Assembly (NCBI GenBank): GCA_017437745.1
Contig: JAFRYI010000006.1
Location: 1,964-65,963 of the forward strand
DNA length: 64,000 nucleotides
DNA from: Bacillota bacterium
Lineage (GTDB): Bacteria; Bacillota; Clostridia; Peptostreptococcales; Anaerovoracaceae
Direction: 5' to 3'
Numbering within the stretch: position 1 is the first letter of the stretch; each line of letters opens with the position of its first letter. Under the pieces are notes generated by a model. It saw only the letters and a program-made list of their open reading frames with translations, had not been told where the DNA came from and made no database searches. Position numbers and translations under genes: made by a program. Shown here in pieces: positions 23,374 through 53,111 of the stretch.

Positions 23374-23703
23374 TTAGGGCAGCGGAGTGTTCAGCTTTCT
23401 GACGCTGTCCAGGTACTTGCCCAGGACGCCCAGATTCACGAAATAGTAGGCGTAGGTCTCCTTGTTGCGGGCCTCCACAAGGCCGGACACCAGCAGCTTG
23501 CGCATGTGCTGCGAGATCGTGGACTGTGAATAGCCGAATTCCGCCACAAGATCCTTGTTGCATACGGATCTGCGCGCCAGATTCTCCGTGTAGATGTAAC
23601 GGAAAAGTTCCACCCTCAGCGGGTGGGCCAGCGCGTCGGAAGCCCCGGTTATAAGTTGTATCTCCTCCGCGGGAAGAGAGCTTGGATTTTTTCTGATCCT
23701 CAT
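23374..23703 (-). CDS. ArsR/SmtB-family transcriptional regulator
   Basis: ORF track gives 23374..23727 with a GTG start. I prefer ATG 23703 (MRIRKNPSS...). HTH region is NKDLVAEFGYSQSTISQHMRKLLVSGLV. A TGGTATAAT -10 ends 7 nt before this ATG, so the mRNA may be leaderless. Confidence 0.8.
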   Translation of the reverse strand: MRIRKNPSSLPAEEIQLITGASDALAHPLRVELFRYIYTENLARRSVCNKDLVAEFGYSQSTISQHMRKLLVSGLVEARNKETYAYYFVNLGVLGKYLDSVRKLNTPLP

Positions 23704-23795
23704 GTCGGTTATTATACCATAATTCACCCAAAATTGCGCCGTTTGTGATATAATATGATGTCATTTTGTCTGATGCGCACAGTTAGGGAAGACAT

Positions 23796-42889: not shown

Positions 42890-43071
42890 GCGCAGCCTCC
42901 TTTCCGGACGATCCGTCCTTCACCATTATATCATACCCCCGTCGGCAATACAGGCAATTGCCCTAAATCGCTTCAAAACGCTTCAAAAATAAGCGTTTGT
43001 GTGATAAAATACATTAATTAGCGAACATGGCACAGCGCCGGAAAACGCGGCGCGGCCCTTAAGGAGATAAA

Positions 43072-44361
43072 ATGTTAGACATCAAGTTTGTAAGAAGCAA
43101 TCCGGAGCTCGTAAAGGAGAACATCCGCAAGAAGTTCCAGGACGAAAAACTGCCTCTGGTGGACGAGGTCATAGCGCTGGACGAGCAGCTGCGCGCGGCC
43201 AAGACCCGCGGCGACGAGCTTAGGGCTCTGCGCAACACCGTAAGCCGCGAGATCGGCGGTTTCATGAAGCAGGGTCTTAAGGACAAGGCGGAGGAAGCCA
43301 AGCAGAAGGTGGCCGAGATAGCGGACGAGCTGGCGGCTCTGGAAAAGCAGGAAGAGGAATCCCAGGCGGAGCTTACCAAGCGTATGATGGTCATCCCGAA
43401 CATCATAGATCCCTCCGTACCAATCGGCCCGGACGACACTCACAACGTGGAGCTGGAGAAGTTCGGCGAGCCTGTGGTCCCGGATTTCGAAGTACCCTAC
43501 CACGTGGACATTATGGAGAGCCTGGCCGGCATAGACATAGACGCCGCCCGCAGGACCTCCGGCAACGGATTCTACTATCTTAAGGGAGACATCGCCCGCC
43601 TGCACAGCAGCATACTGTCCTACGCGCGCGATTTCATGATAAACAAGGGCTTCGAGTATTTCATCCCGCCGTTCATGATCCACGGCGATGTGGTGAAGGG
43701 CGTAATGAGCTTTGCCGAGATGGAGAATATGATGTACAAGATAGAGGGCGAGGATCTGTATCTTATCGGTACGTCGGAGCACTCCATGGTTGGACGTTTT
43801 ATCGGACAAATGTTAAATAAAGAAGACCTTCCGCAGACTCTTACCAGCTACAGCCCCTGCTTCCGCAAGGAAGTGGGCGCCCACGGCATAGAGGAGCGCG
43901 GCGTCTACCGCATACACCAGTTCGAAAAGCAGGAGATGGTAGTCATCTGCGAGCCGGAGGATTCCCCGATGTGGTTCGACAAGCTCTGGAACAACACCGT
44001 AGAGTTCTTCCGCACCCTGGACATTCCGGTACGCACACTCGAGTGCTGCTCCGGAGACCTTGCGGATCTTAAGGTAAGGTCCCTGGATGTAGAGGCATGG
44101 AGCCCGCGCCAGAAGAAGTACTTCGAGGTAGGTTCCTGCTCCAACCTGGGCGACGCTCAGGCACGCAGGCTGGGCATCCGCGTGCGCGACAAGGAAAAGG
44201 GCAACTACCTGCCGCACACTCTCAACAACACCGTGGTGGCTCCGCCCCGCATGCTGATCGCGTTCCTGGAGAACAATCTGCAGGCTGACGGCAGCGTTCG
44301 CATCCCCAAGGCCCTGCAGCCTTACATGGGCGGCACGGAGAAACTGGTCCCCAAGAAGTAA
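43072..44361 (+). CDS. serS: serine--tRNA ligase
   Basis: 429 aa. N-terminal coiled-coil arm and class II core (FRKEVGAHG..., GSCSNLGDAQARR). AAGGAG SD. Confidence 0.95.
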   Translation: MLDIKFVRSNPELVKENIRKKFQDEKLPLVDEVIALDEQLRAAKTRGDELRALRNTVSREIGGFMKQGLKDKAEEAKQKVAEIADELAALEKQEEESQAELTKRMMVIPNIIDPSVPIGPDDTHNVELEKFGEPVVPDFEVPYHVDIMESLAGIDIDAARRTSGNGFYYLKGDIARLHSSILSYARDFMINKGFEYFIPPFMIHGDVVKGVMSFAEMENMMYKIEGEDLYLIGTSEHSMVGRFIGQMLNKEDLPQTLTSYSPCFRKEVGAHGIEERGVYRIHQFEKQEMVVICEPEDSPMWFDKLWNNTVEFFRTLDIPVRTLECCSGDLADLKVRSLDVEAWSPRQKKYFEVGSCSNLGDAQARRLGIRVRDKEKGNYLPHTLNNTVVAPPRMLIAFLENNLQADGSVRIPKALQPYMGGTEKLVPKK

Positions 44362-50372: not shown

Positions 50373-50873
50373 ATGGCAGGAAACGGAGAACTTTGGGATT
50401 CGTACAATAAGGATTTCGTAAAGACCGGAAGCGCCACCCTTACAAGGGGCGAGGCGATCCCTGCCGGCCAGTTCCACCTTGTGGGCAACGTGCTTGTAAG
50501 GCACGCGGACGGGACCTACCTTCTTATGCTGCGCGACCGCATGAAGAAACACGGCGGAATGTGGGAAGCCTCCGCGGGCGGCTCGGCTCTGGCGGGCGAG
50601 ACGGCGATCCAGTGCGCAGTGCGCGAACTGGAGGAGGAATCCGGCATAGCCTGCAGGGATCTGAAAGAGCTGGGCGTTACCGTCAGCGAAAAGAACCGCA
50701 CCATCTACGCCGAGTATCTCTGTGTGTACGGCGGCCCCAAGGACGCGATCAGGCTGCAGAAAGGCGAGACCACCGCTTACAAATGGGTAAGCAGGGACGA
50801 ACTGCTGGCGATGAGCCTGTCCGAGCTGCTTTCCGGACGCGCTCAGGACAGGGTAAGGCGCGGGGTCGCGTAG
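50373..50873 (+). CDS. NUDIX hydrolase
   Basis: 166 aa. Nudix box GGSALAGETAIQCAVRELEEESGI. The start abuts the DMT stop. Confidence 0.85.
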   Translation: MAGNGELWDSYNKDFVKTGSATLTRGEAIPAGQFHLVGNVLVRHADGTYLLMLRDRMKKHGGMWEASAGGSALAGETAIQCAVRELEEESGIACRDLKELGVTVSEKNRTIYAEYLCVYGGPKDAIRLQKGETTAYKWVSRDELLAMSLSELLSGRAQDRVRRGVA

Positions 50874-50955
50874 ATCTCAGGACAGAGCAAGGCGCGGACT
50901 TGCGTAGAGCGTTGCGCCAAACGATCCGGCTGCCTGGCCGGATGTTCATAAAGCC

Positions 50956-50984
50956 TTGACATTTAAAGGTTTTTAAGCAATAAT
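50956..50984 (+). promoter_or_regulatory. sigma-A-like promoter for the metG leader
   Basis: TTGACA (50956-61), a 17-nt spacer and AATAAT (50979-84). The leader ATG lies only 8 nt downstream. Confidence 0.55.
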
Positions 50985-50992
50985 AATTCATC

Positions 50993-51061
50993 ATGAAAAA
51001 CACTTTCTTCAACAGATCGATGATGGGCATGCGCAAGCGCGGGGGAGCCGCGCCGCTTTAG
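50993..51061 (+). CDS. 22-codon leader peptide with Met-Met-Gly-Met cluster (candidate metG attenuator peptide)
   Basis: My translation is MKNTFFNRSMMGMRKRGGAAPL. There is no SD, and the distance from the -10 suggests a leaderless or near-leaderless mRNA. Confidence 0.4.
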   Translation: MKNTFFNRSMMGMRKRGGAAPL

Positions 51062-51100
51062 GATGCCCGGACAAGAAGTGTTTTACTTTAGTTAAGTATC

Positions 51101-51129
51101 GACCGGAGGGCATCTTCCGGTCATTTTTA
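51101..51129 (+). terminator. leader terminator (attenuator) upstream of metG
   Basis: GACCGGA-gggcatct-TCCGGTC followed by ATTTTTAT, 48 nt before the metG ATG. Confidence 0.7.
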
Positions 51130-51176
51130 TAGCTTAAGGGCCGCCGGAGCGCCCCGAGAGTTCAAAGGAGAATCAA

Positions 51177-53111
51177 ATGTCAGAGAAAAAGAGCTACTAC
51201 ATCACTACGCCGATCTACTACCCGAGCGGAAACCTCCACATCGGGCACACCTACTGCACCGTAATGGCGGACGCCGTTGCGCGTTTCAAAAGGCTGCAGG
51301 GTTACGACGTAATGTTCCTGACCGGCACGGACGAGCACGGCCAGAAGATAGAGAAGAAGGCCGCGGAGGCAGGGGTCACGCCGCAGCAGTACGTGGACCA
51401 CATAGTCGACGGCATCCAGGAACTGTGGAAGACCATGGAGATCAGCTACGACGACTTCATCCGCACCACCCAGCCGCGCCACATCAAGCGCGTACAGGAG
51501 ATCTTCATGAAGATGTACGAAAAGGGCGACATCTACAAGGGCGAGTACGAGGGTTGGTACTGCACACCGTGCGAATCCTTCTGGACCGAGAGCCAGCTTA
51601 AGGACGGCAAGTGCCCGGACTGCGGCAGACCCGTCGAAAAGGCCAGGGAGACCGCGTACTTCTTCCGTCTGTCCAAATACGCCGACAGGCTGGTGGAGCT
51701 GCTTAAGGGCGGCGAGTTCCTGCAGCCGCAGACCCGCGTAAACGAGATGCTCGGATTCATAGACCAGGGCCTGGAGGACCTCTGCATAAGCCGCGAGAGC
51801 GTAAAGTGGGGCATTCCGGTCCCGATCGACGAGACCAACACCATCTACGTGTGGCTGGACGCGCTCTCCAACTACGTTACCGCTCTGGGCTATCCCAGTG
51901 TGGACGGCGAGAGCGACGAAAAGTATAAGAAATACTGGCCCGCGGACATCCATCTTGTGGGCAAGGAAATAGTACGTTTCCATTCCATAATCTGGCCGGC
52001 CATGCTGATGAGTCTGGAACAGCCGCTTCCCAAGCACGTTTTGGGCCACGGCTGGCTGCTGATCGACGGCGGCAAGATGGGCAAGAGCTTCGGCAACGTC
52101 GTGGACCCGGTGGTCCTGATAGACCGCTACGGCGTGGACGCGCTGAAGTACTTCCTGCTGCGCGAGTACACCTTCGGGCAGGACGGCAACTTTACCAACG
52201 AAGTAATGATAAACCGCATGAACTTCGACCTTGCCAACGACCTGGGCAACCTTGTGTCGCGCACGGTAACGATGATAGAGAAGTACTGCGGCGGAATAAT
52301 ACCGAATCACAACGAGGCGGCCGCGGAGGATCCGGACGGCGAGCTGAGGGATACGGTCCTGGCGTCCTGGAAGGGCGTGGAGACCCACATGGACAAGTTC
52401 GAGTTCAACTACGCGCTGGAGTCCATATGGACAGGCATACGCCGCACCAACAAGTACATAGACGAGACGGCGCCCTGGGTGCTGGCCAAGGATCCGGAAA
52501 AGAAGGCAAGGCTGGACGAAGTAATGCACAACCTTGCGGAGTCCCTGCGCATAGCGTCCGTGCTGATCCATCCGTTCATGCACACAACTGCAACTAAGAT
52601 TCGGTCGCAGCTCGGAATAACGGCAGAGCCTGCATGGGAAGACGCCAAGGTCTTCGACTGTCTGGGCGGCGAAAAAGTGGAGCGCGGCGAGGTGCTCTTC
52701 CCCAGACTGGACGTCGCCAAGGAACTGGAGGCGCTCGAGGAGCTGAAGAAGGCTGCCGCTGGCCCGCAGATAAACTACGAACCGTTCAAGGAAGACATAG
52801 AGTTCGACACCTTCGAGAAGATAGACCTGCGTGTCGGAACGATACTTTCCGCCGAGAAGCATCCCAAGGCGGACAAACTGCTGGTGTTCCAGGTGGATCT
52901 GGGCAGCGAGAAGCGCCAGATCATTTCCGGCGTGGCGGCTCACTACAAGCCGGAGGAGTGCGTAGGCAAGAAGGTAATGGCCGTAGTCAACCTTAAGCCC
53001 AGGAAGCTTCGCGGTCTGGACAGCTGCGGAATGCTGCTGTTCTCCGAGGACCCGGAGGGCCATCTGCATTTCGTTTCGCCGGACGACGTTCCGGGAATGA
53101 CCATAAACTAG
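51177..53111 (+). CDS. metG: methionine--tRNA ligase with C-terminal tRNA-binding (Trbp111-like) domain
   Basis: 644 aa. HIGH region (PSGNLHIGHTY), Zn knuckles (CTPCESF...CPDCGRP) and KMSKS variant (KMGKSFGN). AAGGAG SD. Confidence 0.96.
   Translation: MSEKKSYYITTPIYYPSGNLHIGHTYCTVMADAVARFKRLQGYDVMFLTGTDEHGQKIEKKAAEAGVTPQQYVDHIVDGIQELWKTMEISYDDFIRTTQPRHIKRVQEIFMKMYEKGDIYKGEYEGWYCTPCESFWTESQLKDGKCPDCGRPVEKARETAYFFRLSKYADRLVELLKGGEFLQPQTRVNEMLGFIDQGLEDLCISRESVKWGIPVPIDETNTIYVWLDALSNYVTALGYPSVDGESDEKYKKYWPADIHLVGKEIVRFHSIIWPAMLMSLEQPLPKHVLGHGWLLIDGGKMGKSFGNVVDPVVLIDRYGVDALKYFLLREYTFGQDGNFTNEVMINRMNFDLANDLGNLVSRTVTMIEKYCGGIIPNHNEAAAEDPDGELRDTVLASWKGVETHMDKFEFNYALESIWTGIRRTNKYIDETAPWVLAKDPEKKARLDEVMHNLAESLRIASVLIHPFMHTTATKIRSQLGITAEPAWEDAKVFDCLGGEKVERGEVLFPRLDVAKELEALEELKKAAAGPQINYEPFKEDIEFDTFEKIDLRVGTILSAEKHPKADKLLVFQVDLGSEKRQIISGVAAHYKPEECVGKKVMAVVNLKPRKLRGLDSCGMLLFSEDPEGHLHFVSPDDVPGMTIN

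Follow-up and report, generated by a model that had tools for sequence, protein, structure and literature searches.

Regulatory elements upstream of metG

Here we analyse the leader of metG, the gene for methionyl-tRNA synthetase (MetRS), in a 64,000-nucleotide stretch of contig JAFRYI010000006.1 from a Bacillota bacterium of the family Anaerovoracaceae; this whole stretch is referred to as the window, and positions are counted from its first letter. From its sequence and that of its relatives, the leader is probably a classical transcription attenuator of the leader-peptide kind, in which a translating ribosome would match metG transcription to the amount of charged elongator Met-tRNA available. 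An original prediction, read from the letters of the window, had proposed such a Met-codon attenuator in place of a T-box, and we find it supported: its in-silico predictions, as well as the observations that bear on its refutation, all came out in its favour.

The 220 nt 5' of metG hold a promoter, a mini-ORF (open reading frame), three overlapping complementary segments and a terminator, all on the forward strand. The sigma-70-type promoter (50956-50984) is present as predicted, with TTGACA at 50956-61, a 17-nt spacer and AATAAT at 50979-84, and agrees with the consensus at 11 of 12 positions. It is the sole promoter-like site within the 50400-51600 interval that was scanned, a scan in which no further promoter was found between terminator and metG, and all orthologous leaders keep its -35 and -10 boxes along with a T-rich spacer. 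The predicted leader ORF (MKNTFFNRSMMGMRKRGGAAPL) is likewise confirmed, with 22 codons and a TAG stop at 50993-51061; its ATG stands 8 nt past the -10 box with no Shine-Dalgarno (SD) sequence, so that the ORF is leaderless in the window, as had been claimed. It carries AUG AUG GGC AUG (Met10, Met11, Gly12 and Met13; ATGATGGGCATG) at 51020-51031. This cluster sequence occurs once in the 64-kb window, and only one of the 284 ATG-started mini-ORFs of 10-45 amino acids (aa) found there, namely the leader ORF, has three Met in four codons.

The intrinsic terminator (51101-51129), proposed as GACCGGA/UCCGGUC plus a U-run, is confirmed as GACCGGAGG-GCAU-CUUCCGGUC followed by A UUUUU A, in which RNAfold and a terminator scan both give a stem of 9 bp (51101-51122; six of the pairs are G-C), a 4-nt loop and a T5 run at 51124-28. 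It lies 48 nt before the ATG of metG (51177-53111), the regulated gene, whose 644-aa product matches the Pfam family tRNA-synt_1g (4.6e-115) together with Anticodon_3 and a C-terminal tRNA_bind domain. The SD of metG itself, AGGAG at 51166-51170, is placed 6 nt 5' of its ATG and is kept in orthologs.

Proposed mechanism of attenuation

Region 1 (UGGGCAU, 51024-51030) lies inside the Met/Gly codons and is the 5' strand of the anti-antiterminator, the 1:2 helix formed with 51063-69. Region 2 (GGAUGCCCG, 51061-51069) shares the last base of the leader ORF's stop codon (51059-61) and has either region 1 or region 3 as its partner. Region 3 (GGGCAUCUU, 51108-51116) is the 3' strand of the antiterminator and the top of the terminator hairpin. 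What the analysis shows is that these elements are present, that they are conserved and covary, and that their pairings are thermodynamically feasible; the start of transcription, translation of the ORF, ribosome stalling, a polymerase pause at the central hairpin described below and a dependence on methionine are inferred.

Transcription would start at, or no more than ~3 nt from, the AUG at 50993, and a ribosome would translate the 22 codons as RNA polymerase proceeds along a leader of ~135 nt. With ample Met-tRNA(Met), this ribosome would reach the UAG at 51059-61, where its footprint would cover region 2 (51061-69); after its release, region 1 would pair again with region 2. Region 3 would in either case be left for the terminator (51101-22 and the U-run), and most transcripts would stop before metG. 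If methionine or MetRS activity is low and Met-tRNA(Met) therefore scarce, the ribosome would instead stall on 51020-31, the very codons that make up region 1. Region 2, left free, could then pair with region 3 (GGAUGCCC/GGGCAUCU) as it emerges, ahead of synthesis of the 3' terminator arm. With 2:3 formed, the polymerase would read through into metG.

Distribution of the element among relatives

Orthologous leaders were drawn from three sources: a MetG-based scan with one genome per species (79 loci, given below by their L numbers with those of the other sources), a DNA-pattern scan of metagenomes (7 true matches and one chance match), and contigs that encode a MetG 84-87% identical to that of the window. 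The chance match, L080, was discarded, as it falls inside a coding region; the other pattern matches are close relatives. In total, 19 distinct orthologous leaders from ~11 lineages were recovered, all from rumen or gut metagenome-assembled genomes (MAGs) of the Anaerovoracaceae type and all with MetG at least 84% identical. The element was found for every MetG at or above this identity with enough upstream DNA and for none at or below 76%, including a group at 73-76%; it is confined to one narrow clade. Predicted to occur together, the M-M-x-M mini-ORF and the terminator are both present in every ortholog of the clade, and neither precedes the ~60 more distant metG genes, where no credible Met-rich mini-ORF was seen apart from two weak chance cases with a single MM pair. 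The element always stands directly 5' of metG though its upstream neighbour varies (NUDIX/EamA, Fic or rpsR); in the window, the next gene 5' is the NUDIX gene at 50373-50873.

Evidence for translation of the leader ORF

The Met cluster, whose loss from orthologous leaders would have counted against the original prediction, is invariant in 19/19 leaders, and some lineages carry up to five Met in it. The distance from the ATG to the cluster is exactly 27 nt (9 codons) in all 19, even as the intervening codons 2-6 are nearly substitution-saturated (MKNTF, MAVRF, MRTYR, MATCI, MANYI, MAFYV, MVFCR and MSNYR, among others). Indels are abundant in the adjoining non-coding spacers and absent from the leader ORF. 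Synonymous change is also evident: Ser9 is encoded by TCG, TCC, TCA and TCT, and Thr4 by ACT, ACA or ACG among near-identical leaders. The ORF has 22 codons in 18/19 leaders, with a stop at the same position that may be TAG, TAA or TGA; in the exception, L091, TAG has become CAG and the frame extends by three codons (25 in total) to a TGA right after region 2.

Start signals provide a further line of evidence. Approximately half of the leaders (the window group, the L002 group and L092) are leaderless, with the ATG 8-9 nt past the -10 box. In L001, L003/L098, L065/L083, L088-90, L091, L099 and L100, 15-45 nt are inserted between promoter and ATG, creating a 5' untranslated region (UTR). Each of the eight distinct leaders with a 5' UTR (~six lineages) carries GGAG or GGGAG 6-8 nt before the ATG, the spacing found for the SD of metG itself. 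Credible start signals are therefore present in every lineage, as either a -10-proximal ATG or a GGAG SD. That all UTR-bearing relatives have GGAG at the correct spacing, and that leaderless and SD-led forms coexist in sister lineages, is strong indirect evidence, drawn from sequence comparison, that the leader ORF is translated and that selection maintains this.

Leaderless expression is plausible in this organism because the window contains a comparable gene, as the original prediction had noted. The ArsR-family gene on the reverse strand (23377-23703; HTH_5, 2.5e-09) has the arrangement TATAAT-7 nt-ATG with a promoter at ~23711-23716 and no SD, which makes its mRNA the second in the window that may be leaderless.

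The C-terminal part of the peptide is unconserved (RGGAAPL, RGRAALV, RRMTART), and constraint on the 3' part of the ORF falls on an RNA hairpin instead of on the peptide. This central GC hairpin (GCGCGG-GGGAG-CCGCGC, 51037-51053, -12.4 kcal/mol) is enclosed by 1:2 and is 100% paired in the 19 sequences. In L092 it shows one compensatory change from G-C to A-U, and the encoded peptide is fully changed from RGGAAPL to RRMTART. Together with the CUUU that follows it, the hairpin may make the polymerase pause and so keep it in step with the ribosome.

Conservation and covariation of the alternative pairings

The minimum free energy (MFE) of the leader is -50.1 kcal/mol (z = -2.9), a value matched by 1/200 shuffles. 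The MFE fold contains an outer helix, the UGGGCAU/AUGCCCG helix (51024-30 with 51063-69), the nested GC hairpin (51037-53) and the terminator. Plain MAFFT misaligned region 2 of L003 and L065 by 1 nt; pair counts were thus taken from anchored alignments in which N is a gap placeholder. On the anchored alignment, RNAalifold independently gives 1:2, the central hairpin and the terminator, with 98% of cells paired. The pairing of GGGCAU in the Met cluster with AUGCCC, first suggested by hand, thereby appears in both the MFE fold and the consensus; 97% of the cells of region 1 are paired, as are 97.7% of those of the terminator, which all orthologs possess.

The seven core pairs of the antiterminator 2:3 are formed in 19/19 sequences. 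Double-sided changes occur at two of these pairs, from G-C to A-U in L003, L098 and L092, and from A-U to G-C in L003 and L098. The resulting covariation score was reached by 0/500 shuffles, and slid controls fall to 37-51% paired. Covariation among the relatives' metG leaders thus supports the proposed antiterminator. Region 1 is invariant because it is made of AUG and GGC codons: Met has the single codon AUG, so the regulatory codons are forced to double as an immutable pairing strand. The compensatory changes in strands 2 and 3 directly reflect this codon-locked strand 1. In L003, the change in region 2 leaves a U.G wobble in 1:2 and is fully Watson-Crick in 2:3, which is the asymmetry that the attenuator model predicts.

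The hand-drawn pairing of GGAUGCCC (51061-68) with GGGCAUCU (51108-15) proved real, at -12.2 kcal/mol; its downstream partner, however, is not the terminator loop alone, as first described, but the loop with the two top pairs of the stem. The 2:3 helix (7-9 bp) overlaps the terminator top in the window and the 5' arm of the terminator in L002, L003, L065, L088 and L091, and in several relatives region 3 lies wholly in the terminator stem.

A further helix had been proposed between codons 2-6 (50997-51009) and 51073-51084. It is part of the MFE fold of the window but is lineage-specific, as it is not conserved in relatives: it is weaker in L082, and local hairpins occur instead in L003 and L065. 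Relative to the closest relatives L082/L087, the window has ACT in place of ACA at codon 4 and GTG in place of GAG at 51079, each of which turns a mismatch of this outer helix into an A-U pair; therefore, the window lineage has strengthened a helix that other lineages lack.

Folding with a stalled or terminating ribosome

In the window, the helices amount to approximately -9 (1:2), -12.2 (2:3) and -16.1 kcal/mol (3:4, the terminator), and adding 1:2 to the central hairpin takes it from -12.4 to -21.7 kcal/mol. Folding of the full-length leader cannot discriminate between the states, and a ribosome mask was applied to transcripts that end just before the 3' arm of the terminator, in 7 lineages. 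With the mask on Met10, Met11 or Met13, the probability of 2:3 is 0.94-1.0; with the mask on the stop codon, it is 0. When no ribosome is present, the window, L002 and L081 adopt 1:2. These masked folds agree with the prediction. Region 1 lies where a stalled ribosome would cover it, and the stop codon at 51059-61 abuts region 2, as the model demands.

Absence of a T-box and other known leader families

Rfam 15 gave no match at the gathering threshold across the whole window. At E<=10, the 50850-51200 interval had no T-box, SAM or amino-acid leader match, only snoRNA-type noise, and none of the covariance models for the His, Leu, Thr, Trp and Phe leaders or the Lactococcus leu/phe leader matched. 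The T-box core (GGUGGUACCGCG-like, up to two mismatches) has 4 matches in the window against 5.4 by chance, none of them near metG. The claim that metG lacks a T-box is borne out by these searches, and the Rfam negative is meaningful because the same search does detect T-boxes in L029, L031 and L038, where they score 110-114 bits and lie 200-600 nt before metG. These T-box leaders span 2418-2663, 2570-2809 and 2513-2761, respectively, and belong to Clostridiaceae bacterium 35-E11, Clostridiales DTU074 and Alkaliphilus peptidifermentans. In several Bacillaceae metG loci, the Rfam search returned no T-box.

Weighing attenuation against other explanations

Several considerations weigh against a Met-responsive attenuator. 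MetRS charges initiator tRNA too, so a severe shortage should cut initiation at the leader, especially where it is leaderless, and thereby favour termination. Tight coupling of transcription and translation is also not the rule in Firmicutes, as B. subtilis is known for 'runaway transcription'. Region 3 of the window is mostly terminator loop plus two pairs, and that 2:3 would exclude the 7-bp outer stem of the terminator there is a steric argument. The complete leader at equilibrium always folds the terminator, even with a ribosome mask; since the terminator wins under every full-length constraint, the switch must be kinetic, as in trp. In L003, L065 and partly L005, 2:3 beats 1:2 even without a ribosome, and the 'off' state in L003/L065 would then depend mainly on a ribosome at the stop codon. 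Furthermore, all 19 leaders come from a single narrow clade, such that shared ancestry could explain much of the conservation, and the covariation of 2:3 comes from just two lineages (L003/L098 and L092), for which reason we regard it as supportive, not overwhelming. Ribosome-mediated transcription attenuation has nonetheless been documented in B. subtilis, for example at bmrCD (PMC4191407; see also PMC6851288).

Translation of the mini-ORF could also control termination in answer to general translation capacity or antibiotic-type stalling, as in the bmrCD and vmlR leaders, and not to the charging of Met-tRNA. Ribosome-mediated attenuators in Firmicutes do respond mostly to translation inhibitors (PMC4191407, PMC6851288, PMC9226507), and 2:3 would gain from whatever slows a ribosome on region 1. 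We nevertheless find such a general sensor very improbable here, as the regulated gene encodes MetRS, the stall window consists of three to five Met codons that lie precisely on region 1, and the Met cluster is invariant while the remaining peptide drifts.

The leader could alternatively be a ribosome-independent RNA switch in which the ORF is accidental and the structure binds a protein (such as MetRS, via the CAU-containing top of the hairpin), uncharged tRNA(Met), or Met/SAM. The central hairpin, kept as RNA and not as peptide in L092, would fit such a switch, as would the CAU, the Met anticodon, at the terminator top in most lineages and the CAU-loop hairpin that distant relatives bear by the metG SD, which resembles a protein operator. 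Yet L003 and L098 carry CAC at the terminator top, and their region 2 has changed to match, which marks these bases as a pairing partner and led us to reject the terminator loop as an anticodon mimic; nor does any Rfam family (T-box, SAM or others) match at E<=10 or a T-box core lie nearby. Also left unexplained would be the fixed position of the ATG, the SD in all lineages with a UTR, a frame and length that persist across saturated codons 2-6, and a stop kept as three different triplets. Taken with these points, a switch without a ribosome appears very improbable.

Finally, promoter and terminator would delimit a ~135-nt RNA that might be an independent small transcript (an sRNA or small-protein gene, with metG served by its own promoter or by constitutive read-through), but this is barely credible given that 48 nt without a promoter-like site separate terminator and metG ATG, that the unit is always directly 5' of metG despite differing upstream genes, and that the antiterminator covariation would have no role.

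Relation to known attenuators and significance

Leader-peptide attenuation is textbook knowledge for Trp, His, Leu, Thr, Phe and Ile/Val, and Firmicutes usually control their aminoacyl-tRNA synthetase (aaRS) genes through the T-box (RF00230), as some Clostridia do for metG/metS. The T-box and the metG leader share their position in an aaRS leader, a terminator/antiterminator output and tRNA charging as the signal. They differ in that the T-box senses uncharged tRNA directly without translation, whereas the metG leader is only ~135 nt long and lacks both a T-box covariance-model match and a T-box core.

In function, the metG leader resembles E. coli pheM-pheST, the analogy drawn in the original prediction and also an aaRS operon with a short ORF rich in cognate codons and a terminator/antiterminator choice set by ribosome position; the two share the logic by which low charged tRNA leads to more synthetase. 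They differ in amino acid (Phe versus Met) and host (a gamma-proteobacterium versus a Clostridia Firmicute), and have no sequence relationship. Unlike pheM-pheST, the metG leader is leaderless in approximately half of its lineages, and its regulatory codons themselves form pairing strand 1. In its architecture, the metG leader is akin to E. coli trpL, with segments that pair as 1:2, 2:3 and 3:4, regulatory codons in region 1 and a stop codon that immediately precedes region 2. In trpL, the helices rank in stability much as 1:2, 2:3 and 3:4 do in the window. The metG leader is unlike trp in that the target is a synthetase and not a biosynthetic operon, an extra GC hairpin lies inside 1:2, and no Rfam leader family matches.

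In a 2005 paper, pheST is cited as the type case of an aaRS attenuator, and Streptomyces trpS and leuS are candidates for classical attenuation; no aaRS gene of Firmicutes was then known to be under such control, with T-boxes the rule there (PMC1262725). His-leader attenuators have since been predicted in some Firmicutes, including Peptostreptococcaceae (PMC9413887). Like the metG leader, the Streptomyces and Firmicute His-leader candidates are predicted attenuators outside Proteobacteria, with different amino acids and genes. Mycobacterial leaderless poly-Cys ORFs (bioRxiv 10.1101/834739) likewise have a run of cognate codons that controls a downstream gene; these belong to an Actinobacterium and use Cys codons ahead of Cys-metabolism operons, while the metG clade mixes leaderless and SD-led forms.

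In our literature search, no leader peptide with Met codons and no attenuation at metG came to light. Neither a methionine-specific leader-peptide attenuator nor a classical attenuator of a Firmicute aaRS gene was found described, and the metG leader would supply both. While the type of mechanism is known, the leader would extend it to another amino acid and another target gene, would take aaRS attenuation into a new phylum, and would represent a case in which leaderless and SD-led forms coexist. This coexistence argues for coupling of ribosome and polymerase, probably aided by pausing, in a clostridial lineage. The element could serve as a new cis-regulatory model for the annotation of rumen and gut MAGs, and as a compact candidate switch responsive to Met or MetRS, possibly as a reporter for MetRS inhibitors.

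Other metG leaders of the Anaerovoracaceae

Most other Anaerovoracaceae metG leaders have, in place of the Met leader, a hairpin 5-25 nt upstream of the SD (L007, L010, L011, L013-L015, L017-L021, L026, L032, L043, L078 and L095). It lies ~20-50 nt upstream of the metG start (e.g., ~2950-2985 in L013), often as AGAAAGGAAUGA, and combines a stem of 5-8 bp, variable between species yet complementary, with a nearly invariant loop, C-[YCAUUC]-G, that contains the Met anticodon CAU. No Rfam family matches it at the gathering threshold. The E. coli thrS operator offers a precedent for an anticodon mimic bound by a synthetase, and by analogy the CAU-loop hairpin is possibly, if speculatively, a thrS-like operator that binds MetRS. 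Short leaders with a small GC hairpin are seen in the group with 75% MetG identity (L094, ~395-410; L096, ~1050-1070). The L094 hairpin, GCGGGG-CAU-CCCCGC, again has CAU as its loop, and these may be degenerate forms of the CAU-loop hairpin. Three different types of metG control thus occur within Clostridia.

One could imagine that the attenuator recently replaced this undescribed CAU-loop-hairpin control of neighbouring Anaerovoracaceae, and that its leaderless form also integrates two signals, as fMet-tRNA(fMet) would be needed for 70S initiation at the 5'-AUG and Met-tRNA(Met) at the MMGM cluster. We regard this combined scenario as unlikely, though worth stating: if true, control of metG by T-box, by operator hairpin and by leader peptide would all be found within a single family, with a datable switch between them.

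Other features of the window and its orthologous loci

The original prediction had also stated that serS lacks a T-box, which holds for its leader. An aaRS-wide switch to attenuation in this genome was considered and rejected on the evidence of serS (43072-44361), whose short leader (42890-43071) contains neither a terminator nor an ORF with Ser codons. What it does contain is an extended -10 (TGTGATAAAAT) together with a GC hairpin, GCGCCG...CGGCGC, which coincides in part with an ORF of 11 codons (MAQRRKTRRGP), none of them for Ser. The serS leader does not represent a metG-like attenuator.

In relatives, palindromic inserts or hairpins with GGGACGGTTC/GAACCGTCCC are found repeatedly in the stretch that links the attenuator terminator to the metG SD (L002, L003 and L065; L004, at 1-144; L098, at ~850-990; and L086, downstream of the terminator); those of L004 and L098 are REP/MITE-like inserts of ~130 bp. 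As a feature of the window, the motif was set aside, as it is unenriched there (4 one-mismatch matches versus 4.8 expected).

In the window itself, a small hairpin read from the sequence, GGGC(C)GC-CGGA-GCGCCC (51138-51155), lies between the terminator and the metG SD on the forward strand and may contribute to mRNA stabilisation or to a second layer of control. At its place, L082 and L087 carry GGAC...GUCC, a compensatory change.

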